NCBI GenBank assembly: GCA_964475145.1
Contig: CAYYVK010000001.1
Coordinates: forward strand, 6,328-70,327
Length of the DNA: 64,000 bases
Reading direction: 5' to 3'
DNA from: an uncultured archaeon
GTDB taxonomy: Archaea; Aenigmatarchaeota; Aenigmatarchaeia; CG10238-14; SCSR01
Position numbers and translations under genes: made by a program. The notes beneath the pieces are model-generated. The model did no database searches. It was not told the DNA's origin and saw only the letters and a list, made by a program, of their open reading frames with translations. Of this stretch, positions 2,153 to 57,748 are shown piece after piece; the stretch's first letter is position 1; every line of letters starts with the position of its first letter.

Positions 2153-2444
2153 TTTTCTACATCTTCTAATTTTTCCCTGCTCATTAAAGATATTTAAAGA
2201 GTAAAACTGAAAAACCCTAATATACTACTCTTGAACAAAAAGTTAAACCCGAAGGAAAATTACTGAGAAGCTATTGAAGCAAGAAACAATTAAAAGAAAC
2301 AAAAGACGGTAATTCTATTTGGCTGAGTTGAGGTATGGAATAGCTTGGGAAAGAAAATATATTTAAAAAACGTTAAATTCTAACTTTAAACTAAGAGATA
2401 TTAGCAACAAAACTAGGAATAACATAATTCTGATTTAAAGTTAC

Positions 2445-2456
2445 TTTTAAATATTT
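2445..2456 (+). promoter_or_regulatory. candidate TATA box (TTTTAAATATTT) about 20 nt upstream of TFB-like ATG; would imply leaderless or short-leader transcript
   Basis: A/T-rich TATA-like octamer at expected archaeal spacing in a 320-bp intergenic region. Confidence 0.25.
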
Positions 2457-2472
2457 ACCGATTTAATTTTAA

Positions 2473-3075
2473 GTGGTGCAGATGAGTAAACAGCGTGATA
2501 AAAATCTTGCCAGCAGTATAAGAGAGTTAGAAAGCCTTTGCGATAAACTCTACATTCCACAATCTGTTAAGGAGAAGGCTATTTCAATCTATTCTTCTGC
2601 ATTAGATAAAGGTTTACTACGTAGAAGCTCTAGTGTTAAATTGACCTATGCTGCTCTTTATGCTGCTTGCCGACATATGGATTTTCCAAGATTTATTTCT
2701 GAAATAGCTGAAGCAGGTCCTCTTAGCAGGAAAGAACTTCAGAGAAACTACAGGCTTCTGGTACGTGAAGGATTAGTAGAACCAAAAGCGCAAGATCCTC
2801 TCTTATATATTCCCAGAATTGCTGAAAAGTTAGGGATTTCGATGAAAGCTCAGGAGCTTGCTATTAGATACCTTAAGAAAGCTAAAGAGAAGCATATTTT
2901 ACCCGGGAAATCTCCACTAGCATTGGCTGCAGGAGCCCTTTACCTTGCTTGTATAGAGTGTGGTGAGAAGAAACTTCAAAGGGATATAGCGAAAGCAGCT
3001 TGTGTAAGTGAAGTAAGTATAAGAAATTCATATAAATATCTTATGAAAAAGCTAGACTGGAGCCTTCCTTGGTGA
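2473..3075 (+). CDS. TFB/TFIIB core-domain protein (two cyclin folds) lacking N-terminal Zn-ribbon and B-reader
   Basis: 200 aa matching both TFB cyclin repeats (AALYAACRHMDFPR...; KSPLALAAGALYLACIECGEKK...SIRNSYKYL); no CxxC ribbon encoded upstream in any frame. Confidence 0.7.
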   Translation: MVQMSKQRDKNLASSIRELESLCDKLYIPQSVKEKAISIYSSALDKGLLRRSSSVKLTYAALYAACRHMDFPRFISEIAEAGPLSRKELQRNYRLLVREGLVEPKAQDPLLYIPRIAEKLGISMKAQELAIRYLKKAKEKHILPGKSPLALAAGALYLACIECGEKKLQRDIAKAACVSEVSIRNSYKYLMKKLDWSLPW

Positions 3076-5274: not shown

Positions 5275-5687
5275 TAATTATGAAAGAGTTTAGGTATAGA
5301 GGATATACGCTAGAAGAATTGAAAAAAATGTCTATAGAAGAATTTGCAAAGATAGCTGACGCAAAAATAAGAAGAAAGTTAAGAAGAGGATTAACTGAAC
5401 AAGAGAGAAAGCTCTTAGAAAAGTTAAGGAAAGAGCCTGACAAGTTTCACAAAACACATGTAAGAAGCATGGTAATACTTCCTGAAATGGTTGGAAAAAA
5501 GATTGGCGTCTATATTGGTGGTGGAAAGGCTGGAGACGCAAGCGGTAAATGGCAACCTATTACAATAACTCCTGAAATGATAGGATTTAGGCTTGGTGAC
5601 TTTGCAATAACAATAAAGCGTGTGAAACATTCTGCACCTGGTATAGGAGCTTCTAAGGGAAGCAAACACTATGCAACAAAGACCTAG
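5271..5687 (+). CDS. rps19: 30S ribosomal protein S19 (uS19)
   Basis: 138 aa; position L2-S19-L22; GHAAPG-like C-terminal segment (KHSAPGIGASKGSKH). Confidence 0.85.
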   Translation: MIIMKEFRYRGYTLEELKKMSIEEFAKIADAKIRRKLRRGLTEQERKLLEKLRKEPDKFHKTHVRSMVILPEMVGKKIGVYIGGGKAGDASGKWQPITITPEMIGFRLGDFAITIKRVKHSAPGIGASKGSKHYATKT

Positions 5688-6048
5688 TGATGGCATGAAA
5701 GTGACTGCAAGAACTACAGCAAGAATTTCTCTCAAGCATTCCACTCTCCTATGCAAAAAACTAAAAGGAAAGAAATTGTCAAAAGCAAAAAGCTTTTTGG
5801 AAAGGCTTATAGAAAAGAAGGAAAGTGTAGACGGAAAGTATTACACAAAAGCAAGCAGCGAAATCCTTAAACTACTAAATAATGTAGAAGCAAACGCAAA
5901 ACAAAAGAACATGGATGTAGAAAGGTTATTCATAAGTAGAATAAAAGCAGATAAAGGTTTTACCTTCGTGCTTCCAAAATCAAAGGCAAAGTTCAGGGGA
6001 AGAAGAGGAAAAGTAACAAACTTGGAAGTAGTGGTGGAAGAAAGGTGA
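5671..6048 (+). CDS. rpl22: 50S ribosomal protein L22 (uL22)
   Basis: position S19-L22-S3; basic 125-aa product; start may lie further upstream with non-ATG codon. Confidence 0.7.
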   Translation: MQQRPSDGMKVTARTTARISLKHSTLLCKKLKGKKLSKAKSFLERLIEKKESVDGKYYTKASSEILKLLNNVEANAKQKNMDVERLFISRIKADKGFTFVLPKSKAKFRGRRGKVTNLEVVVEER

Positions 6049-25761: not shown

Positions 25762-26268
25762 TTACCACACTCTTACACTTATTTTTGCATAAGAGCCTGA
25801 ATCTAAGGCCGCTATTCTAGTTACTTCTGCTATATTCTGTCTGGAAATCTTGGTAGGAGGTGAACAGCTTGCTAAGAGTGTGTTAGAAATTAAGTCTGCA
25901 ATCGTGATCTCAAATTGATAATCTTGTGGTACTCCTAATTTTTCGGCGATGGAATTGTAGTCTGAAGAACATGTTTGATTAAAGGCTTGTATTTTATCGA
26001 GAGAAATTAAGTTTGTTAAATTCTTCAACTCGCTAGAAAGGCCTATTCTCTTTATTTCACCAGGACTCGTTTGGGTCCAATTGAGTGGTTCGCCAAAATC
26101 GTTTACTAAAAGCTCAGAAATCTGGTAAGCTTCTGCTTTTAGAAGCCTATTTCTTATTTCTGCTCTGTACACCGAAGTAGCAGAAATTGTTTGAAAAACT
26201 ATGTATGTGGCAAACATTACAAACAATACTAGAGAAAAATAGTATTCGGAAGATACTTGAGCCTTCAT
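25762..26268 (-). CDS. pilin-like protein (class III signal peptide MKA|QVSSEYYF...)
   Basis: short charged N-terminus then ~20-aa hydrophobic helix; stop/start abuts neighbours. Confidence 0.4.
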   Translation of the reverse strand: MKAQVSSEYYFSLVLFVMFATYIVFQTISATSVYRAEIRNRLLKAEAYQISELLVNDFGEPLNWTQTSPGEIKRIGLSSELKNLTNLISLDKIQAFNQTCSSDYNSIAEKLGVPQDYQFEITIADLISNTLLASCSPPTKISRQNIAEVTRIAALDSGSYAKISVRVW

Positions 26269-27188
26269 ACTACCAGCAACCCTACTCTTGATAAGAACAT
26301 GAATGAAACTAAAACTATCACGCTAAGGATTAAGCTATGTTTTAATCCTGCTATTACAGAATTCTCGCTTATCTGTCCTGCAACCAAGCCAGCAAAGAAT
26401 GCTTGCATAAAAGCCATGTAGAAGAAGAGGGAAACATAGTAGGAGGGTATGCCAGGCTTAACACCAAACAAACTAGTTGAAGTTAGTTCAAAAAGTGCAC
26501 ATATACTGCAAGCTCCAGCTGTACAACTCTCGCAAGGGTTTGTTAGCCCGACTACCTGTCCAAAGGTTGGAGAATAGAAAACAGGCATTAACAAATGATT
26601 GATAAGAACGATTATCACTATGAAAATTATAGTTATAGCATAGATTATTAGCAAGTGTTTATGTAATATGCTTCTCTTCTCCTTTTCTGCCTCTTGCAAG
26701 GTTATCAAGTTGTCTGCAACAGAATCTATGACAGAAACTATCTCACCTCCAGACAAATGAGCCTCTCTTATTATATTCACTGCCATATAAAGCCTTTTAC
26801 TACTTTTTACCCTTTCAGCAAACTGACCTAGAACCTTATCTACACTCATCCCCCAGCTTATTTGATTAGACATCTTCTTTACTTCCAGGCTCAGCCTACC
26901 ATAGCCTATTTTACTAGTTTGTTGTATTGCCTTGTAAAGTGGCATTCCAGAGCTTATAGCTTCTGCCAAATCGTGTAAAAAGTTTGGAAATACTGCCTCC
27001 ATTTCTTTTATGTCTCTGTACTTCTGGTACTGGTAAAGGAAATACATGAAAACTATTGCTAAAGTAGAAACTATTATCCCATTAGCTAAAACTCCCCTGT
27101 CGCCAGTTAAAACACCTATAAGAATAGCTCCTAGTAGAATTGCTCCAGAAATCCCTATCATCCTAATTTCTCTCTTAATTTTATTCAC
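26265..27188 (-). CDS. pilus-assembly platform protein, TadC/FlaJ half-size (T2SS-F domain)
   Basis: 307 aa; cytoplasmic helical domain followed by 3-4 TM helices; paired with a second such gene next to a FlaI/TadA ATPase. Confidence 0.55.
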   Translation of the reverse strand: MNKIKREIRMIGISGAILLGAILIGVLTGDRGVLANGIIVSTLAIVFMYFLYQYQKYRDIKEMEAVFPNFLHDLAEAISSGMPLYKAIQQTSKIGYGRLSLEVKKMSNQISWGMSVDKVLGQFAERVKSSKRLYMAVNIIREAHLSGGEIVSVIDSVADNLITLQEAEKEKRSILHKHLLIIYAITIIFIVIIVLINHLLMPVFYSPTFGQVVGLTNPCESCTAGACSICALFELTSTSLFGVKPGIPSYYVSLFFYMAFMQAFFAGLVAGQISENSVIAGLKHSLILSVIVLVSFMFLSRVGLLVV

Positions 27189-28041
27189 CTCCTGGTGTTG
27201 CTGCCTTTACAAGATAGAGGAAAAGAATCGAAACTGACGGTATTACCACGAAAATCATCATAAATTGGAGGGGAAGTACGTTGCCTCCTCCTATTCCAGA
27301 AATTATTGCAGTTAGGACTGTCATAAAAATAGCTGCAAGAATTATCGCAACAAGGTATATCTCCAAGTAAATCGTCAGGCTGTGAGCAAACTCGTATAAT
27401 TTTCTTCTGTATTCTACCATCATGCTATTGGACTTCTCTTTCAAGTATACATTCAAATCTCCACCTGCTCTTACGATTGAAAGGATTCCGTAAAAGATTT
27501 CACTAAGCTTTTTTGATGGTGACCTTTCAATAGCTCTTTCAAGTGCTGTGTTTACGTCTAGTCCGAACATCTCTATGTCTGTATTAATGGAGTTTATCTC
27601 AGCTGCAATTTCTTCCCTTCCAAACTTGGAAGACATCTTTAAAATTTTTGATAAAGGTAGTTTTGTACTAGCTATAGTTGAAAGATAGAGGAGGGAAAAA
27701 GGTAGTGCGCTATCTATCTTCTTCTCCCTATCTCTAATCAAAAGCTTTGGATAGTTTATGTACAAGTAAAAGAAGATTATAGAGAGGAAGACTGATGTGG
27801 TGAAACCAGTAAAAAATGCAAAAGCAAAGCTTTTAAACAATAATCCGTAGATGAAAGAAAATATAGGCAACTCGAAAAGGAAAACTATTAAGCCTGTTAG
27901 CAAAGATTTGGAAATGAACTCTTCCACAGAAATTTTAGACTTTGATTTTCTTAAATCAGATTTTAAGTCTGGAAAGTAAACTGTAAGCTTGCCCGCATAC
28001 TCGCTGAAAAGTTTGTAGGCAACCCTATCATAGAAACCCAT
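27181..28041 (-). CDS. pilus-assembly platform protein, TadB/FlaJ half-size (T2SS-F domain)
   Basis: 286 aa polytopic membrane protein; overlaps both neighbours by a few nt. Confidence 0.5.
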   Translation of the reverse strand: MGFYDRVAYKLFSEYAGKLTVYFPDLKSDLRKSKSKISVEEFISKSLLTGLIVFLFELPIFSFIYGLLFKSFAFAFFTGFTTSVFLSIIFFYLYINYPKLLIRDREKKIDSALPFSLLYLSTIASTKLPLSKILKMSSKFGREEIAAEINSINTDIEMFGLDVNTALERAIERSPSKKLSEIFYGILSIVRAGGDLNVYLKEKSNSMMVEYRRKLYEFAHSLTIYLEIYLVAIILAAIFMTVLTAIISGIGGGNVLPLQFMMIFVVIPSVSILFLYLVKAATPGGE

Positions 28042-29841
28042 CTAGCTCTCACCCATTACTACTGCCAGAACTCGAACAGGTGATGTATAATAAAGGTTTA
28101 TTACCTGGTACACACTTCTATAATCTGTTATGTTCTTTTTCTTCATCCACTCTAGAATCAAAGCCCTCCTTTGTAGCTCGTCTATCACGTCTTGCTCTGG
28201 TATACCAAACGTCTTTGAAATTTTCTTAAGAGTTAGACTCTTGCCTTGTACATCAAACTTGTCTGTGAAAGAATTCCACTTTAGCACAGTATTTACAGTG
28301 GGTCTTTGAGTCTCAAAATCAAAACCTGTTACCTCTACCACTTCACTCACTCTTCTAACAAACTTTTCTTTATACCTAGCACGAATTAGGAAAACTATCA
28401 AATCTAAGCTTGCAACGAGTGGAGGAGGTAGGGCAATAGGTTGTGTTGTTAATCTGTCAAAAAGTTTATTCATGTCTTCTGCATGTATTGTTGCAAGAGA
28501 TGGGTGACCAGTAGAGATTTGTTGGAATAGGATGTAAGCTTCTTTACCCCTAACCTCCCCAACTACTATATAATCTGGTCTTTGTCTTAGGCTTTCTCTC
28601 AGCAGGTCGAACAAGTCTACCTCTCCTCTTTCTCCCTTACTTATAGCAGTTCTTGCAACAGTAGGAACCCAGTGAGGATGTGGTAACCTTATTTCTGCAG
28701 TATCCTCTATAGAAACGATCTTCTTCTCTGGCCTGATAAAAAGAGAAAGAACGTTTAGCATAGAAGTTTTACCAGTTGCTGTACCACCAGAAATCAGAAT
28801 ACTTCTCCCATAATCTACTGCCAGCCATAAGAATGCTAAAGTCTTTGCATCGACTGTTCCATAGTTCATTAAATGAATAGGCGTTAAAGGCTCTTCTGTG
28901 AATTTTCTGATAGTAAAATTGCTTCCTTTTCTTGCTATGTCTGTGGCTAAAGTTGCTTGTAAACGCGAGCCGTCAGGGAGAGTTCCATCAACCAAAGGTT
29001 CAGCAACTGAAATAGATTTACCGCTTAACTGAGCTAACCTTATTATAAAAGAGTCTAGTTCCTCAGCAGAAGGAAAAACTACATTAGTAACTATAGAGCC
29101 AAAAGCAGGATCTCTATGATAGACAAAAATTGGCACCCCTACTCCGTCGCAAGAAATGTCCTCTATATTCGGGTCTTGCATTAATGGTTCTATTCTTCCC
29201 AAACCAACAAAATCTCTGTTTATGTAGTAATCAAGTATTTCTCTTTCCTCTGGTGTAATTTCTACCTTAAAGTATTTTAGCAATTCACTTATCTGTTGAC
29301 GGATATACTCTCTTGCTTCAGCCACTCCTAATTTAGAGAAGTCTACCTCCAGCCTCTGTTCTAGGAGCTCTCTAAGCTTATTCATCAAACTTTTTATCTT
29401 ATCACTCAAAGGCGGTTCAACTAACTGATAAACATATTTATTTGCCTTTTCGTCCCAGAAGATCCGAGCATAAGCAAAAATCTTTTCACCTTTTTTTGGA
29501 TTTCTTGGAATTAAAGGATATATGGTGACTCCTTTTTTAATTTCTACAGCTTCTTTTTTTCCTATCCCAACTTTTTTAATTTCTGTTGGAATCTCTAATC
29601 CCTCTTCTACCTTTACTTCTTTTCGAATGGCTGGTTTTTCTACTTCCTTAGGAACTTCTACACCACCTATCATTGGCCGAATCTTTAACGGTACTTCTAT
29701 CACACCTCCAGTAGACTTTATAGCTAAAGAAACTCCCAGCGGGCCTATTCCTGCTCCTTCTGCTTCAGCACTCTTAGCTTCCGTTAGGACTTTCTTCGCA
29801 CCCCTAATCATTTTTCTTGCTACTATTTTAGCTATCCTCAT
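28042..29841 (-). CDS. type IV pilus/archaellum-family secretion ATPase (FlaI/TadA/VirB11-like) with ~120-aa Lys/Glu-rich N-terminal extension
   Basis: Walker A ILISGGTATGKTS; DYIVVGEVRG Walker B/Asp box; His box TGHPSLATIHAED. Confidence 0.8.
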   Translation of the reverse strand: MRIAKIVARKMIRGAKKVLTEAKSAEAEGAGIGPLGVSLAIKSTGGVIEVPLKIRPMIGGVEVPKEVEKPAIRKEVKVEEGLEIPTEIKKVGIGKKEAVEIKKGVTIYPLIPRNPKKGEKIFAYARIFWDEKANKYVYQLVEPPLSDKIKSLMNKLRELLEQRLEVDFSKLGVAEAREYIRQQISELLKYFKVEITPEEREILDYYINRDFVGLGRIEPLMQDPNIEDISCDGVGVPIFVYHRDPAFGSIVTNVVFPSAEELDSFIIRLAQLSGKSISVAEPLVDGTLPDGSRLQATLATDIARKGSNFTIRKFTEEPLTPIHLMNYGTVDAKTLAFLWLAVDYGRSILISGGTATGKTSMLNVLSLFIRPEKKIVSIEDTAEIRLPHPHWVPTVARTAISKGERGEVDLFDLLRESLRQRPDYIVVGEVRGKEAYILFQQISTGHPSLATIHAEDMNKLFDRLTTQPIALPPPLVASLDLIVFLIRARYKEKFVRRVSEVVEVTGFDFETQRPTVNTVLKWNSFTDKFDVQGKSLTLKKISKTFGIPEQDVIDELQRRALILEWMKKKNITDYRSVYQVINLYYTSPVRVLAVVMGES

Positions 29842-33368: not shown

Positions 33369-34271
33369 TTAGAGACATGAAGATTCTACAACCTTTCTCA
33401 AATCTTTTCTACTAGTTTCTTTCAATTCTTCTTTCGATATGATTGGCAAATTGTCTAAATACTTTTTTCTATACTGTTGGATTACAAACAAAACCTTCGA
33501 GAGGGTCACCGCTGACATTTCTCTGAAATGTTGCAAACTTCTTAGAACTTTTTCCTCGTCTTCGTAAAGCGCTGTAATAAATACTTTTTCCTCTCTTCCA
33601 ATAATATTAAAAATTGATCCACGCACCGGAGAATTCTCTATTTTCATACGCTTAAACTCTTTGACAACTTCACTTTCGAAATCATCTTTTGGTTTGAGAT
33701 ACACCGGTTCTGATTGATCAAACCTAAAGTTAACTCGAAGTTTTGTGTTCAGCAATTCTTCCATCTTTTCTACATGCTCGAGTTTCGGGTTCACACGTTT
33801 GTGCTCTATTTCATACAATGCCTTTTTGGATATACCTATCCTTTTCGCCATATCCTCTAGCGTATACTTGTTCTCTAACCTCTTCCTCCTAAGCAACTCT
33901 GCGTCTATTTCTACTACATGCTTACCTTTGCTAGCCATAACTGCTGATGAGGTATTATCAATAATAGATTCTAGCGTTTGAGGCGTGACCACTGCCACAG
34001 AGAAACGGTTGTACACTGTATTGTCCTGGAGCTTAAATTTTGTACATCTATAAGCTACGATAAATGGGCAAGCTGAAAGAAAGTATGCCAAGTTCTTTAG
34101 GCTAAAAGCACTTTCCTGTGAAATGCAGTCCACGTTAAATAAAACCTTTAACAGGAGTAGATAATCTCTTCTAGCAGCAATGTCAAAACATCCACTAGTC
34201 ACGAACACATCAAATTCTTTTCTCTTTAGCATCTCGGCTACTTGCTTTAGCAGTAGAAACTTATTAAACAT
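33369..34271 (-). CDS. XRE-family HTH transcriptional regulator with N- and C-terminal domains of unknown function; start set at internal Met (MFNKF) to avoid tRNA overlap
   Basis: HTH TLEDMAKRIGISKKALYEIEHKRVNP; ORF-track start 34343 would overlap tRNA at 34314..34410. Confidence 0.5.
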   Translation of the reverse strand: MFNKFLLLKQVAEMLKRKEFDVFVTSGCFDIAARRDYLLLLKVLFNVDCISQESAFSLKNLAYFLSACPFIVAYRCTKFKLQDNTVYNRFSVAVVTPQTLESIIDNTSSAVMASKGKHVVEIDAELLRRKRLENKYTLEDMAKRIGISKKALYEIEHKRVNPKLEHVEKMEELLNTKLRVNFRFDQSEPVYLKPKDDFESEVVKEFKRMKIENSPVRGSIFNIIGREEKVFITALYEDEEKVLRSLQHFREMSAVTLSKVLFVIQQYRKKYLDNLPIISKEELKETSRKDLRKVVESSCL

Positions 34272-34313
34272 TTCTCTCAATAAATTATTGAAAAGAAATA
34301 TATTTATGATATT

Positions 34314-34410
34314 GGGCGAGTAGCTTAGCCTGGTGGAGCACAAGTGCTTAATCGCCTTATAAGGCAGCTAAGCTAGCGAGGGGTCGAGGGTTCAAATCCC
34401 TCCTCGCCCA
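34314..34410 (+). tRNA. tRNA (97 nt) with one or more non-canonical insertions/introns; isotype unresolved
   Basis: Perfect acceptor GGGCGAG/CTCGCCC, T-arm GAGGG-TTCAAAT-CCCTC, D-arm GCTT-AGCCTGGTG-GAGC, discriminator A. Anticodon region holds perfect helix GCTTA/TAAGC enclosing 18 nt with nested hairpin GCCT-TATA-AGGC; about 23 nt exceed a 74-nt tRNA. Confidence 0.7.
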
Positions 34411-51858: not shown

Positions 51859-53400
51859 TCATCTTTCCAAAACAAACATCTTTTTTGTTATTGGTATTTC
51901 TCTTACTCGATGAATCAACATTTCCCTCTTTTCTCCAATGCCGATAGGAATTTCTTCTGCTAATAAGTTAGAAGCTCTTTCCAGCTTCCTCAGTTTTTCC
52001 GCATAGATTGTGAGAATTTTCTCTTCTTTCTTTACAGGATCTCCAAGTTTCTTGTGTAAAGTTACACCAGCTCCCTTATCTTTTGGTGCTCCTGCTGCTT
52101 TGGCAACCTCGGATATACCCCCATTATCGATCCACAACACTCTCCCATTTTTCTCTGACTTTATATCCAATTTATACGCACCTACCTCCACTTCCTCAGG
52201 ACTTATCTTTTTCCCTCCTTGGGCTTCCATTATTTCATAGAGTTTTTTCATGGCTTTACCAGAGTTTAATGCAGCTTTAGCTAGATTCTCGGAATTTCTT
52301 TTACCCACCATGCTCAGAAGTATTTGTGCTAAAGAGCATACCTTCTCTTCTAGATCGCTTACAATTCTTCTTCTTGAAATGACTTCTAAAGCCTCCCTTG
52401 CTTCAAGAGCAGGACCTATCGAATAGCCTACAGGCTGTTCCCCATAAGTAACAGCGCACTGAACTTTTATTCCAACCCTTTTCCCAAGCTCTATAAAATC
52501 TTTTGCTAACAAATCTGCATCTCCTATAGTCTTAATTTTTGCTCCTCTACCAGTAGGTATATCTATCACCAAATGTGTAGCTCCAACCGCTTTTTTCTTT
52601 GCCATTATAGATGGTAGAAGAAGAGGATCTATACCAAGAGGGTATTCTATCTGAATGAATATATCGTCTGCAGGGGCTAGCTGTAAAGTGCCTCCCCAAA
52701 CTATGCAACCGTTTGTTTTTTCTACCACTTTCTTCATTTCTTCAATGGTTAAGTTAACTGGCATCAAACATCCTGCTCTATCAGCTGTGCCTGCTGGTGA
52801 AGTAATTGCTCTAGAAGATGTCTTTGGTATTGTTAAGCCAAGACAAGCGATTATAGGAACGAGGAGTAGCGTAGTCTTATCTCCTGGCACACCACCTGCA
52901 GAATGTTTATCACAAATAATTTTCCTCTTCAGATTAAGCTTTTTTCCAGTCTCGACCATAGCAATAGATAAGCTTGTAGCCTCGTCTAAGTCTAGTCCAG
53001 TATTGTGAAGAGTGGTAACAAAAGCAGATATTTCTATATCGGTCAAGTTTCTTTCTACAATATCTTTAACAATTTGCTTTATTTCGTCATAGTTCAGTTT
53101 TCTTCCTTTTAGCTTGTTCCTGATGAAATGAAGAGATTGAGGGAATTTTGCAACTTCCACTTCTAACGTTTCTTCCCTTCTTAGCCCAAGGGCTGCTTTG
53201 ACTTCCTCGTACAAGCCTATCGTACCTTTTTCTACTATCTTTTCTGTCACGTTTACTATAGCAGTTACACAATTCTTTTTGTAACCAACCCTAACTCTGT
53301 CAAGACTATGTATACCTAAATCTCCTGCATCCTCCATGTTCAAAATTACTATCGGTTTACCACCCGACTCCAAGCCTAGGAACTTTGCCTTCAAGTTCAT
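51859..53400 (-). CDS. deoA: AMP phosphorylase (thymidine-phosphorylase family, archaeal DeoA-like)
   Basis: 513 aa; N-terminal ~90-aa extension plus glycosyl-transferase family-3 core (SAGGVPGDKTTL; TGRGAKIKT). Confidence 0.8.
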   Translation of the reverse strand: MNLKAKFLGLESGGKPIVILNMEDAGDLGIHSLDRVRVGYKKNCVTAIVNVTEKIVEKGTIGLYEEVKAALGLRREETLEVEVAKFPQSLHFIRNKLKGRKLNYDEIKQIVKDIVERNLTDIEISAFVTTLHNTGLDLDEATSLSIAMVETGKKLNLKRKIICDKHSAGGVPGDKTTLLLVPIIACLGLTIPKTSSRAITSPAGTADRAGCLMPVNLTIEEMKKVVEKTNGCIVWGGTLQLAPADDIFIQIEYPLGIDPLLLPSIMAKKKAVGATHLVIDIPTGRGAKIKTIGDADLLAKDFIELGKRVGIKVQCAVTYGEQPVGYSIGPALEAREALEVISRRRIVSDLEEKVCSLAQILLSMVGKRNSENLAKAALNSGKAMKKLYEIMEAQGGKKISPEEVEVGAYKLDIKSEKNGRVLWIDNGGISEVAKAAGAPKDKGAGVTLHKKLGDPVKKEEKILTIYAEKLRKLERASNLLAEEIPIGIGEKREMLIHRVREIPITKKMFVLER

Positions 53401-53774
53401 GCTACACTACACACTCCTTCTATACATTTGCATGACAAAGAAGGTTTTGGAGAAATTATCTGAGGGCAAATAACCTTAAATCCGCTACATGTAACGTTAC
53501 TCCTTTTGTTTATGCATTCCCAATTGGCTCCGGCTGTCTCTGGACAACAATTAGTGGAAAGCCATTCACAATCTGTATCAAAAGTGCATGAACGAATTAT
53601 CTCAGGTGTATGAACTGGTATTGTAGTTGATGGAGCTGTGGTCGTGGTTGTTGTCCCTATAGTTATTTGTGTGACGCATAAATTTTTCTGGACAGATTTT
53701 AGAAAGATCCAGAAGCCGATCAACATAGTTAAAATGGTGAAAAGGATATAAGGAGTACACCTTCTTACCTTCAT
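53397..53774 (-). CDS. small secreted/anchored Cys-rich protein with poly-Thr linker
   Basis: 125 aa; N-terminal TM/signal, TTTTTTAPSTT linker, 11 Cys in final 60 aa; 4-nt overlap with deoA start. Confidence 0.4.
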   Translation of the reverse strand: MKVRRCTPYILFTILTMLIGFWIFLKSVQKNLCVTQITIGTTTTTTAPSTTIPVHTPEIIRSCTFDTDCEWLSTNCCPETAGANWECINKRSNVTCSGFKVICPQIISPKPSLSCKCIEGVCSVA

Positions 53775-53849
53775 AAGTTAAATTTTGTTATCTGAAAATA
53801 AATGCTTAGGAAGACATTTTCTTGAGTGCCAGCCTCAAAAGATTAGAAG

Positions 53850-55091
53850 TTATCTGGAAGAAACAAAACCAAACTTGTTTAATGCTAGCTTGAGTTCTTT
53901 ATGTGTCTTGGAATACTCTTGTAGCGAGATTCCTTCTAATGCAGCATCCAATGCTTGCCTCATTGCGATAGCACCTATTCTTGTTTGAAGAGAGTGTATT
54001 CCACCGCCAGCTTGAACAATGAAATCGTTACCAAATACTTTTATCAATTGAGGTATATGGCCAGGATGCAACCCTCCAGAAGCAACAGGCATAACAGGCT
54101 TAAACTTCCATAGCCCTTCTTTTAACGCTTTACAATTTTCTAAAACTTCTTCCTTCTTCTCAAACATTTTCCCTACTCCTGTGCCTACGTGCAACTGATC
54201 TACACCAACAATTCTCGCAAGCTTTGCAATAACTTTCATGGATATACCATGCTTAGAATTTCTTGTTAGAGCTGCATGCCCTGCCCTATGTGCATGAATA
54301 ACAAGGTTAAAGTCTTGATTCCTTAAAGTCTGCAACGCAGACCAACCTATAGTAATTATGTCAACCATTATATACTCGTTCCCAACGTTCTCCACAGCCT
54401 TGGCACGTTTTAGCATTTCTTGCGTTTCTGCAGTAACGTTTATCATGTATGCTTTCTTCTCACCAGTTTCTTTTTCAGCCTTTTCTTTTGCTTTAAATGT
54501 TTTCTCTAACCTCTTCTCGAACTTATTGAAGTTTTGGCTGCTTAAGTTTTCATCATCTTTTACTATATCAATACCATTAACCCAAGCTTCGTAAGCAACT
54601 TTTACATGTTCTTCTGTTCTTAATCCAATCTTAGGTTTTATTATTGTCCCCAGCAAAGGTCTATTTGTCCTAAAAATTTTCCTTATCCCTTTTATTCCAT
54701 ACTTCGGACCTTTGAAGCTTTTCAGAAGCTTCTCTGGAATTGTTAAATCGACGAGCCTTAAACTTTTTATCTCTTTCATGCCAAAGATGTTTCCTGCCAC
54801 GCTAGAGAGGATCTGAGGAATATTTCCAGGTTCAAAAAGCTCAACAGGATAAGCAACGTTTATTCTTTTTCCCTCAATCTTAAAAACTTTTGCTGCAAGT
54901 TTTCTAACATACTTTTTCTCAGTTTTCACTTCTGTCCACGTTCCAGTCGAGCTCTCTGCAGCAATTGCACCAGCTGCTCTTTCTATACTTGAATTCCCTG
55001 CAGGCTCTAAAACGAATTCACATACCAAATCGTCCTTGCCTGGCTTGTAACCAAGGTCTACATAGTCTTCGTATCGCACACCATCACCCAA
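53850..55091 (-). CDS. rbcL: ribulose-1,5-bisphosphate carboxylase, form III
   Basis: 413 aa; GTIIKPKIGL, KDDENLSSQ, AGGGIHS-type motifs; clustered with AMPpase and R15P isomerase. Confidence 0.9.
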   Translation of the reverse strand: MGDGVRYEDYVDLGYKPGKDDLVCEFVLEPAGNSSIERAAGAIAAESSTGTWTEVKTEKKYVRKLAAKVFKIEGKRINVAYPVELFEPGNIPQILSSVAGNIFGMKEIKSLRLVDLTIPEKLLKSFKGPKYGIKGIRKIFRTNRPLLGTIIKPKIGLRTEEHVKVAYEAWVNGIDIVKDDENLSSQNFNKFEKRLEKTFKAKEKAEKETGEKKAYMINVTAETQEMLKRAKAVENVGNEYIMVDIITIGWSALQTLRNQDFNLVIHAHRAGHAALTRNSKHGISMKVIAKLARIVGVDQLHVGTGVGKMFEKKEEVLENCKALKEGLWKFKPVMPVASGGLHPGHIPQLIKVFGNDFIVQAGGGIHSLQTRIGAIAMRQALDAALEGISLQEYSKTHKELKLALNKFGFVSSR

Positions 55092-55923
55092 ACCTTTTCA
55101 TAAATTCTTTTGGCGTGAAAATTCCTTTTTCATTCACCAAGTAAGAAACAAGGTCAAACTCTACCAGATCAAAAGCCGGATTTCTCACTTTAATCTTTTT
55201 AGTGTTGATTTTAGAAAAAATTTCAGCATAAATTTCTTCTGCTGGCCTTTCTTCTATCACAAGCTTTTTCCTCTTATCTATCTTTAGAGTATTGCCAACA
55301 ACGATAAATGGTTTTTTCTCTCTTGCAGCTGCTAGCGCAAGGTTTTTTGTACCTATCTTGTTCACTACACCCTTAGGCTCAACAACTCTTATAGCATCTG
55401 TTCCAACTACTACACAATCTACATCTTTCATAAAATAGCTAACAGAATTGTCTGTAATGAGTGTGACAGGTATTCCAATCTTAGAAAGCTCTTTAGCAGT
55501 TTTCACCCCTTGCTCAAGAGGTTCTGTTATCGTAGCAAAAACACGGAATTTTTTCCCTTTTTTCCAGGCATTCTTTAAAACAGATAAAGCTTCACCAGAA
55601 TGACAGTGAGTCATTATTGTATGTCCATTACCAATAAGCTTACTTCCAATCCTTGCAACCCTTTTGGTAGAAGTTTCTAGTCTTTTGATGAGATAGTCTA
55701 TCGTTTTGACACTCTTTTTCTTTTTCAAAATCTCTAAGCAATTGTGTAAAACTACTGCAGTTGGTCTTGCACGCTCAAGTATCATTGCTGCAACCTCAAA
55801 CTTTAAACCAAATCCATACTTCTTACAGAACTTCCTCAAGAATTTTAACGAATACAAAGCAATCTCTTTAGCACCTTGAACTTTCATGCTCTGTATGCTT
55901 TCAGCAACTCTGGAAACATCCAT
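55084..55923 (-). CDS. ribose-1,5-bisphosphate isomerase (eIF-2B alpha/beta/delta-like family)
   Basis: 279 aa; GTDAIRVVEPKGVVNKIGT and CHSG motifs; 8-nt overlap with rbcL. Confidence 0.8.
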   Translation of the reverse strand: MDVSRVAESIQSMKVQGAKEIALYSLKFLRKFCKKYGFGLKFEVAAMILERARPTAVVLHNCLEILKKKKSVKTIDYLIKRLETSTKRVARIGSKLIGNGHTIMTHCHSGEALSVLKNAWKKGKKFRVFATITEPLEQGVKTAKELSKIGIPVTLITDNSVSYFMKDVDCVVVGTDAIRVVEPKGVVNKIGTKNLALAAAREKKPFIVVGNTLKIDKRKKLVIEERPAEEIYAEIFSKINTKKIKVRNPAFDLVEFDLVSYLVNEKGIFTPKEFMKRFG

Positions 55924-55955: not shown

Positions 55956-56627
55956 ATGAAAAGTTCAGAGGAAGAGAGAAAAAGGTTGGTAGAAACTCTA
56001 GAGAAAAGGGGGTATATTCGCAGCAAAGAGGTTAAGGAAGCAATGCTGAAAGTCAAAAGAGAGGACTTTGTTCCAGAAGAATATAAAAAAGATGCTTATC
56101 TAGATACACCACTTCCAATCCCAGGTAATGTAACTATATCTGCACCCCATAGCTAAGGGGAAATGCATGCAATCTCCCTAGAAGCTCTGCAGCTTAAACC
56201 TAGAGAAAAGTTTTTGGAAGTTGGCGCTGGCTCAGGAATAATGCTTGCTTATGCTTACGAAATAATTAGAAGCAAGGAGAAAGTTTTTGGGATAGAGATT
56301 GTTCCAGAAGCTTACAAGTTTGGAAAAGAAAATTTGGAAAAAGCAGGATATGGCAACAAAGTTAAGCTTGTTCTTGGAGATGGTTCTTTAGGATTGCCCA
56401 ACTATGCCCCATTCGATAAGGTCTTAATAAGTGCTGCATGCCCAGATATACCCAAACCGTTAAAGGAGCAGACTAAAGTTGGAGGGAGAATAGTCGCAGT
56501 TATTGGTTTACCACATGGGGATCAACACCTTGTTTTAGTTGAAAAAACAAAAGGTGGAAAATTTTTAAGAAAAAAACTTTTACCTGTAGTTTTTGTTCCG
56601 CTAGTTGGAGAGTACGGATGGAAATAA
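55956..56627 (+). pseudogene. pcm: protein-L-isoaspartate O-methyltransferase (pcm) interrupted by in-frame TAA; either pseudogene or split gene (66-aa N-fragment 55956..56156 and 154-aa C-fragment 56163..56627 with its own AAGGGG RBS)
   Basis: ...TISAPHS*GEMHAISLEALQL versus canonical contiguous TISxPHM; downstream SAM motif LEVGAGSGIMLAYAY. Confidence 0.6.
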
Positions 56628-57646: not shown

Positions 57647-57748
57647 TGGGGTCGACGGGATTCGAACCCGCACACCGAGGTTTCCTCATCAAATCAGAGC
57701 TCCATTCAGCTGGAGCCTCGTGTCACTACCAGGTTAGACGACGACCCC
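57647..57748 (-). tRNA. tRNA-Trp (CCA) with 28-nt intron at canonical 37/38 position
   Basis: GGGGTCG-TC-GTCT-AACCTGGTAG-TGAC-A-CGAGG-CTCCAG[CTGAATGGAGCTCTGATTTGATGAGGAA]A-CCTCG-GTGT-GCGGG-TTCGAAT-CCCGT-CGACCCC-A; intron UGGAG pairs with anticodon loop. Confidence 0.8.

Follow-up and report, generated by a model that had tools for sequence, protein, structure and literature searches.

In a 64,000-nucleotide (nt) stretch of DNA from an uncultured archaeon (contig CAYYVK010000001.1 of assembly GCA_964475145.1; hereafter the window), pcm, the gene for protein-L-isoaspartate methyltransferase (PIMT), is broken at 56151-56162 by the 12 nt AGCTAAGGGGAA. These 12 nt are probably a miniature intron of the bulge-helix-bulge (BHB) class, in the relaxed bulge-helix-loop (BHL) form, that is excised from the pcm mRNA. 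We infer the cleavage and ligation of that mRNA, and the enzymes responsible for them, from sequence comparisons. The nearest named relatives of the window are metagenome-assembled genomes (MAGs) of Aenigmatarchaeota, and its genes include those for a TFIIB-family protein, a thermosome, class I LysRS, Orc1/Cdc6 and the archaeal ribosomal proteins L15e and S4e.

The insert holds an in-frame TAA (56154-56156) and an ATG follows it directly. Two open reading frames (ORFs), one of 66 amino acids (aa) at 55956-56156 with the C terminus TISAPHS and one of 154 aa at 56163-56627 with the N terminus MHAISLEAL, share one frame, with the TAA and GGGGAA between them. A preliminary description made from the letters alone had described this arrangement correctly, and its gene assignment held as well: the joined product has a full-length match to PF01135 (Pfam PCMT; E=1.3e-59, residues 7-215) and aligns with the solved PIMT of P. 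furiosus (PDB 1jg1; E=2.2e-54) without a gap at the junction (tisaphmhaisleal against tvsaphmvaimleian), where the 1jg1 sequence reads TVSAPHMVA. The seven aligned intact relatives, 66-69% identical, read TISAPHMHA there, one of them with Leu for Pro, and together with 1jg1 bear out the earlier remark that orthologues are contiguous at this point. An AlphaFold model of the joined product is confident and single-domain (pLDDT 96), and the junction lies immediately behind the conserved Ser62 of the TISAPHM motif, where helix 64-74 makes its first turn. The GTDB representative genomes contained distant intact relatives of pcm only, the best being a 56%-identical Aenigmatarchaeota MAG. The interrupted junction is base-for-base identical in four other independent assemblies (L001-L003 and L007), so the break is not the assembly error that the preliminary description had allowed for, and diverged versions of it occur in more than 20 further contigs from many samples.

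The minimum free energy (MFE) fold of 56130-56180 is a BHL consisting of an outer helix, an AAA bulge, a central helix of 4 base pairs (bp) and the 8-nt loop AUAGCUAA (Table 1). Archaeal BHB motifs are cut between the second and third bulge residues (PMC2738675). Applied here as AU/A and AA/A (the slash marking the cut), the rule removes exactly 56151-56162 and gives CCC CAT joined to ATG CAT, which reads SAPH followed by MHA; excision of 56152-56163 in place of 56151-56162 leads to an identical product. In a scan of both strands of the window, the chance that a given boundary pair fits the geometry was about 3e-5 under the strict definition, with a 4-bp Watson-Crick helix and an outer helix of at least 4 bp, and about 3e-4 under a relaxed one. 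BHL motifs are substrates of the (alpha-beta)2, epsilon2 and loop-bearing alpha4 splicing endonucleases, DPANN archaea included (PMC5829648, PMC12397907). The stability of the hairpin by itself is unremarkable (z = -0.6 in comparison with shuffles), and a search of the window with Rfam returned three tRNAs only and no match at pcm. As the thermodynamic z is uninformative for so short a motif, we relied on comparative evidence.

Under the splicing interpretation, UGCA-CCCC of exon 1 in the pre-mRNA would pair with the GGGG at the 3' end of the insert and the UGCA at the start of exon 2, which would give outer and central helices of 4 bp each, separated on one side by the 3-nt AAA bulge, with the loop capping the central one. 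The tRNA-splicing endonuclease EndA would cut AA/A in the bulge and AU/A at the symmetric position across the 4-bp helix, and an RtcB-type ligase would join the exons. The spliced mRNA, with TCT GCA CCC CAT running into ATG CAT GCA, would encode a single PIMT of 219 aa; the predicted junction has GCACCCCAT followed by ATGCATGC, and the predicted junction peptide is SAPHMHAISLEALQLK.

Carriers of homologous inserts were gathered from an unbiased metagenome scan, a protein search with a fragment from a second lineage and contig look-ups. We found 26 carrier loci with 14 distinct complete junctions, and all inserts lie at one codon boundary. Their lengths among the 14 distinct carriers are 12, 13, 15, 22, 23 and 28 nt (Table 1). 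Multiples of three are not favoured among these, which argues that the insert is not translated within the protein and that readthrough cannot rejoin the halves. Constant across carriers are GCACC(C/T)CA(T/C) before the insert, A at its beginning, G(G/A)GGAA at its end and ATGCA after it; the loop differs in sequence and length, the segment between the first insert base and the GRGG strand measuring 5-21 nt. A stop in the exon 1 frame (TAA, TGA or TAG) is present in all 14 inserts, 4-18 nt from the ATG. It occupies insert nt 4-6 in almost every short form, and the substitutions TAA to TGA and TAA to TAG preserve it. The universal stop may act as a safeguard that keeps unspliced RNA from being translated, or it may indicate that two polypeptides are expressed. 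One further candidate for a pcm fragment, P0173/L102, was rejected as it turned out to be an intact gene interrupted by an N-run.

The pairing is retained among these junctions. In the alignment of the 14 sequences, 98% of the cells pair: the central helix is paired in every carrier, while the outer helix UGCA/UGCA has 3-4 bp and 96% of its cells are paired. When the register is slid by 1-3 columns, the pairing drops from 98% to 15-50%. One pair of the central helix covaries, being C-G in 11 carriers and U-A in three with no half-changes (CCCC/GGGG in 11, CCUC/GAGG in three), and the observed score of the alignment was reached by only 1 of 500 shuffles. On the exonic side, the change from C-G to U-A is synonymous (Pro CCC to CCU). 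The three U-A carriers (L093, L095 and L101) are found in three separate parts of the protein tree. Among the longer inserts, the 23-nt one of L095 forms a near-canonical BHB, with 3-nt bulges, AUA and AAA, on either side of the 4-bp helix and an inner helix that is also 4 bp long.

The codons that make up the exonic strands are similarly restricted. Ala is encoded by GCA in 14 of 14 carriers versus 12 of 54 intact junctions (22%), and the Pro codon is CCC or CCT in all 14 carriers. TCT GCA CCC CAT was present in all six distinct carrier junctions of this comparison, and GCA CCC CAT in none of the 54 distinct intact junctions; the product of the codon frequencies for GCA-CCC-CAT is 0.009. The intact sisters with DNA examined use other synonymous codons at the junction, for example GCT CCT CAC in L038 and L031. 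Just outside the helix variation is present, in the neighbouring Thr and Ile codons and in the third base of the downstream His codon. Both halves of pcm are under purifying selection, with dN/dS of 0.02-0.19 at dS from 0.45 to saturation, and it is across these synonymous distances that the codons within the helix stay restricted.

Introns of this kind also occur in tRNA genes of the window. The geometric rule that fits pcm finds two loop-type introns in tRNA-Ile(UAU), one of 10 nt at 27/28 (34342-34351) and one of 13 nt at 37/38 (34362-34374). Spliced in silico, the tRNA is 74 nt long with a perfect anticodon stem and is called tRNA-Ile(tat) by ARAGORN, whereas standard tRNA finders report the unspliced gene as "tRNA-???" with a 4-base anticodon. 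As this tRNA needs both introns removed, the host presumably processes loop-type introns of this size, one at a non-canonical position included. The layout of the 13-nt intron is that of the pcm insert, with one bulge nucleotide, a short loop, a 4-nt helix strand and two bulge nucleotides. The 7-mer AGCTAAG is common to the pcm insert (56151-56157) and the 13-nt intron AGGCAGCTAAGCT (34366-34372), at structural positions that are not equivalent; the match may be a coincidence or may point to a shared origin. The 5' end of the tRNA-Ile gene is overlapped by 30 nt by an ORF for an HTH_3-domain protein with a TTG start (33369-34343, minus strand), and on account of this overlap the true start of the ORF is probably further downstream. 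The intron of tRNA-Trp(CCA) has a C.A mismatch within the 4-bp helix of its BHB. It carries CUGA...CUGA and UGAUGA, which are C/D-box-like, and its UGGAGC pairs with the anticodon loop, placing C34 five nt upstream of CUGA; it resembles the known tRNA-Trp intron guide for 2'-O-methylation of C34, here much shorter.

The distribution of the insert among relatives is patchy. On a neighbour-joining tree of 104 sequences (no bootstrap), carriers stand at no fewer than eight positions, interleaved with intact genes, and by pairwise identity at least five carrier lineages are less similar to every other carrier lineage than to an intact gene (Table 1). Lineages that share only about 60% protein identity still have the interrupted form. 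A pattern of repeated scar-free loss, or of repeated site-specific gain, is also reported for the cbf5 intron (PMC2738675), and a single gene fission is hard to reconcile with it. The carrier contig L101 (NCBI GCA_054386315.1, JBQSHO010000254.1) bears the source label Candidatus Heimdallarchaeota; its nearest pcm relatives are Aenigmarchaeota-like sequences and it has the same gene order beside pcm, and the contig may be mis-binned. That order is the divergent pair IF-2B and pcm, 32 nt apart in the window, and among the carrier loci whose gene maps were read it is syntenic in the window, L001-L004, L007, L094, L097, L098, L100 and L101. The IF-2B-family gene, for ribose-1,5-bisphosphate isomerase, belongs to an AMP-salvage (pentose-bisphosphate) cluster at 51859-55923 (minus strand), together with genes for an AMP/thymidine phosphorylase family protein and a form-III RuBisCO, and the cluster adjoins pcm in most related loci as well.

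Table 1. Coordinates of the pcm element and the intron-bearing tRNA genes in the window, and inserts of the carriers with their protein identities to other lineages
Feature or carrier	Position	Strand	Insert or length	Remark
pcm exon 1	55956..56150	+	65 codons	Ends in ACT ATA TCT GCA CCC CAT = TISAPH
Outer helix, 5' strand UGCA (exon 1)	56141..56144	+		Pairs with 56164-56167 in the MFE fold; each pair formed in 12-14 of 14 carriers
Central 4-bp helix, 5' strand CCCC (exon 1: Pro codon and first His base)	56145..56148	+		Pairs with 56157-56160; paired in 14 of 14 carriers
5' splice-site triplet AUA	56149..56151	+		Equivalent of bulge 1, here within the 8-nt loop; predicted cut U56150/A56151
Predicted BHL mini-intron	56151..56162	+	AGCTAAGGGGAA, 12 nt	Excision gives gapless alignment to PDB 1jg1 and intact relatives
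Variable loop GCUAA	56152..56156	+		Length and sequence free to vary among carriers
Central helix, 3' strand GGGG (intron)	56157..56160	+		MFE fold and pairing in 14 carriers
3' bulge AAA	56161..56163	+		Predicted cut A56162/A56163; A56163 is the A of ATG; invariant in 14 of 14 carriers
Outer helix, 3' strand UGCA (exon 2: UG of AUG and CA of His codon)	56164..56167	+		MFE fold and carrier pairing
pcm exon 2	56163..56627	+	154 codons and TAA stop	Includes the S-adenosylmethionine (SAM)-binding Rossmann domain
tRNA-Ile(UAU), two mini-introns	34314..34410	+		Both found by the same geometric rule
tRNA-Trp(CCA)	57647..57748	-	28-nt intron, 57682-57709	3' site GAGG AA/A CCUCG resembles pcm GGGG AA/A UGCA
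Window, L013, L098			AGCTAAGGGGAA, 12 nt	
L100			ACTTAGGGGGAA, 12 nt	
L004, L017			AGCTAAAGGGGAA, 13 nt	
L022			AGCTGAAGGGGAA, 13 nt	
L035			AAATAGAGGGGAA, 13 nt	
L093			AAGTTATGAGGAA, 13 nt	89% to nearest intact gene (P0002), 71% to nearest other carrier lineage
L045			AATTAATTTGGGGAA, 15 nt	88% to nearest intact gene (P0139), 72% to nearest other carrier lineage
L103			AACTAATCAGGGGAA, 15 nt	
L101			ACGGCCGTTCTGGCTTGAGGAA, 22 nt	75% to nearest intact gene, 69% to nearest other carrier lineage
L095			AATTGCTTTAAACAATAGAGGAA, 23 nt	77% to nearest intact gene, 69% to nearest other carrier lineage
L094			AATAGTTCCTGATGGTAACTTTGGGGAA, 28 nt	82% to nearest intact gene (P0005), 71% to nearest other carrier lineage

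Several observations weigh against splicing. The insert stands directly before a conserved Met codon, a placement with a chance of about 1-2% for an intron yet required by a split gene. The stop close to the ATG in every insert is also what termination and reinitiation need, although its universality is partly ascertainment, several carriers having been found as truncated ORFs. Covariation is seen at one base pair only; the seven other pairs are invariant and so do not test the structure, which makes this support real but thin. A hairpin masking the start codon until an upstream ribosome opens it would equally explain the conservation of the helix. In the MFE folds the central helix is at least 5 bp long in L045, L093, L094 and L101, off the 4-bp rule; the 22- and 28-nt inserts form inner helices too, and the MFE central helix that is one A-U pair longer counts slightly against the interpretation. 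A full-length spliced version more than 70% identical to the window protein was not found in the protein collection, and genes for EndA and RtcB were not found among the approximately 60 window ORFs scanned. Finally, neither the window nor 351 kb of related loci yielded a second interrupted protein gene. The covariance model R1 found pcm only, at 87 bits, with the next best hit at 15 bits and an E of about 0.1, and a search over those 351 kb that combined the motif with orthologues recovered all pcm carriers and nothing else convincing.

The candidates met in the search for a second case were rejected one by one. A geometric scan of the window gave 56 candidates that would fuse ORFs; the best, at 5677-5698, is the boundary between the S19 and L22 genes, and all others are junctions between genes or antisense frames. 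A TFB-like ORF at 2473-3075 was dismissed as a second split gene since no exon was found in the upstream 320 nt. This TFIIB-family ORF (region 2153-3075, plus strand) encodes 200 aa with two cyclin repeats and neither Zn-ribbon nor B-reader, and it may be a truncated TFB paralogue; the 320-nt AT-rich stretch before it has no ORF and no Rfam match. Two adjacent T2SSF ORFs proved to be separate genes, the downstream one having a proper Shine-Dalgarno sequence, AGGAGGTGA. They belong to a type IV pilus/archaellum-like module at 26265-29841 (minus strand), in which a T2SSE-family ATPase of 599 aa is followed by the two T2SSF-domain membrane proteins, which overlap each other by 8 nt.

The most serious alternative to splicing is a genuinely split gene, which we judge unlikely and the weaker reading, yet a live rival. 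The mRNA would then remain unspliced; translation would terminate at the insert stop and reinitiate at the nearby ATG, the conserved hairpin holding the ATG closed until the upstream ribosome arrives, and the 66-aa and 154-aa products would assemble into an active PIMT. This model accounts for an insert placed exactly before the conserved Met with a stop near the ATG in 14 of 14 carriers and for purifying selection on both halves; the helix lies over the start codon, an arrangement familiar from classical translational coupling, and GAGG/GGGG is purine-rich and loosely Shine-Dalgarno-like. The preliminary description had read AAGGGG, placed 5 nt before the ATG, as a ribosome-binding site, but the G-run ends 2 nt before the ATG, whereas the signal of this organism is GGAGGTG, with GAGG about 8 nt (and GGTG 4-7 nt) before the ATG. 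The GRGG of pcm has no match of at least 4 nt to that Shine-Dalgarno sequence, even if reinitiation without one is still compatible with the model. Translational coupling needs neither an exact 4-bp helix with 3 unpaired nucleotides and borders 2 nt past each strand, nor an inner helix that leaves a 3-nt 5' bulge as in the longer insert. It would also place the break within the first turn of a helix of the AlphaFold model, right behind Ser62, and give the N-terminal fragment variable junk tails (S, K, N, T, KL, NSS, TAVLA and NCFKQ). Carriers of a split gene should be monophyletic, yet they are interleaved with intact genes and many scar-free re-fusions would be needed. A mixed mode is possible as well, in which spliced mRNA would give the full-length enzyme and unspliced mRNA the two fragments.

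The other readings are, even taken jointly, highly improbable in comparison with splicing and the split gene. Very improbable is a translational bypass, or hopping, like that of phage T4 gene 60, in which peptidyl-tRNA-His would leave CAU at 56148-56150 and land on the next His codon, CAU/CAC, at 56166-56168. By inspection, the matched CAU and CAU/CAC codons, the early stop, the hairpin at the take-off site and the purine-rich GRGG before the landing site agree with it, and such signals resemble those of gene 60. However, the product would lose the Met-His of the near-invariant SAPHMHA motif, and bypassing predicts no 4-bp helix with a 3-nt bulge and leaves unexplained the invariant AA/A and AU/A registers across inserts of 12-28 nt; bypassing is not known in Archaea. 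There is equally little room for a recent pseudogene or a sequencing or assembly artefact: an in-frame stop in a conserved motif looks like a fresh nonsense lesion, but the junction is identical in five independent assemblies with variants in more than 20 contigs from many samples, dN/dS stays at 0.02-0.19 in both halves at dS of at least 0.45, and the insert structure is kept with covariation. This recurrence, conservation and selection exclude both. Least probable of all is readthrough of the TAA into a 223-aa protein with a 4-residue insertion, which is suggested by the frame-preserving 12 nt of the window. Close relatives have 13-nt inserts (with TAA in L004 and L017, TGA in L022 and TAG in L035) and others 22, 23 or 28 nt, which put exon 2 out of frame; only the 12- and 15-nt inserts keep it. 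The inserts use three different stops, each of which also ends normal genes of the window. The inserts whose lengths are not divisible by three exclude readthrough for the family. Stop reassignment or recoding to Sec or Pyl was rejected, as all three stops occur in the inserts and end ordinary genes (TAA 30, TGA 22 and TAG 19 times in the window), in agreement with the earlier remark that TAA is not globally reassigned. Of the three explanations in the preliminary description, the split gene thus survives in a weaker position and programmed readthrough and a recent pseudogene are excluded; a BHB-type intron was not among them.

Within the splicing interpretation there is a further proposal, which we consider improbable: that the element is a site-specific, evolutionarily mobile BHB mini-intron, acquired more than once, or exchanged, at a single codon boundary in Aenigmarchaeota-like lineages. 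A possible route of insertion would be the EndA/RtcB reaction reversed on mRNA and then copied back into DNA. Since the element carries a stop codon, the full-length repair enzyme would depend on the tRNA-splicing machinery.

Comparison with known systems places the pcm element among several partial counterparts. The split genes of Nanoarchaeum equitans lie scattered over the genome, with expression signals of their own for each. The likeness lies in a DPANN archaeon with a conserved enzyme in two ORFs, whereas the pcm halves are 6-25 nt apart, are joined by a conserved splice-type motif and are intact in close relatives. The 12-bp indels of archaeal viruses are usually frame-preserving and without stops. 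Described as "putative 12-bp introns" in ORFs of rudiviruses (SIRV1) and lipothrixviruses (Peng 2004, as cited in PMC2738675 and PMC4390879), they are likewise 12-bp insertions in protein genes of archaeal genomes for which, according to these citing accounts, the mechanism of insertion is obscure and splicing undemonstrated; they are viral, reported from Sulfolobales hosts.

HAC1/XBP1 splicing in eukaryotes employs the Ire1 endonuclease and a tRNA ligase or RtcB as a regulated stress switch. This unconventional splicing is mentioned in PMC4090602. Like the predicted pcm reaction, it takes a short intron out of a coding mRNA at stem-loop sites independently of the spliceosome, and a tRNA ligase does the joining; it differs in using Ire1 in place of EndA and in being stress-regulated. 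Were the pcm element mobile in the way outlined above, it would be an archaeal counterpart of conditional mRNA splicing of the HAC1/XBP1 type, possibly related to the 12-bp indels of archaeal viruses.

The non-canonical BHL/hBH tRNA introns of DPANN and Crenarchaeota share the structural plan, in which a 4-bp helix stands between a single 3-nt bulge and a loop, as well as the size range, and are cut by broad-specificity EndA of the (alpha-beta)2, epsilon2 or loop-bearing alpha4 type (PMC5829648, PMC12397907, PMC3239211). The putative pcm substrate differs in being an mRNA, with an outer helix made of codons and splicing that would have to compete with translation. In Haloferax volcanii, HVO_1309 has a BHB intron in the 5' untranslated region (UTR) of its mRNA (PMC7714728). 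It is the only other mRNA substrate reported for processing by the tRNA-splicing endonuclease, and its intron is a canonical BHB in the untranslated leader whereas the predicted one of pcm is in the coding sequence.

A close parallel is the cbf5 intron of Crenarchaeota, which is 16-44 bp long, frequently has a relaxed motif and was initially taken for frameshifts or gene decay (PMC2738675; Watanabe 2002; Yoshinari 2006; Yokobori 2009). Like it, the predicted pcm intron is short, of BHB type and in coding sequence, with cut sites matching the borders defined by orthologues; both interrupt a catalytic-site motif and are patchily distributed with gain and loss. On the other hand, the pcm element is found in DPANN (Aenigmarchaeota-like) and not in Crenarchaeota/TACK, its inserts measure 12-28 nt versus 16-44 bp, and it stands at a codon boundary before Met, always with an in-frame stop, whereas the cbf5 intron lies inside an Asp codon. 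Splicing of cbf5 has been confirmed by cDNA and in vitro cleavage and that of pcm is predicted. The host gene being pcm (PF01135) and the site other than the catalytic Asp codon of cbf5 in Desulfurococcales/Sulfolobales, the element does not belong to the cbf5 family; going by its sequence features it would work like the cbf5 intron outside that family, with a different gene, site and superphylum.

Introns in other archaeal protein genes have been predicted and never confirmed, as noted by Yokobori et al. (PMC2738675), and reviews up to 2025 cite cbf5 (since 2002) as the sole archaeal coding-sequence case, accompanied by the Haloferax 5'-UTR intron. If it is spliced, pcm would be only the second archaeal protein-coding gene known to be spliced in this way. 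At 12 nt its element is the shortest such element, near the lower limit of the 11-175 nt reported for archaeal tRNA introns. Splicing of mRNA by the tRNA-splicing pathway would then not be a one-off but extend to a second gene in another superphylum, DPANN; very small loop-type motifs would suffice in mRNA; and gene callers would systematically mis-annotate such genes as split genes, frameshifts or pseudogenes. The database contains dozens of 66-aa and 154-aa "PIMT fragments". The pcm motif is a compact RNA substrate of about 40 nt with natural length variants and one natural compensatory mutant, and it could serve to study the way in which broad-specificity endonucleases measure where to cut, the gain and loss of introns at a fixed site, and the competition between splicing and coupled translation.

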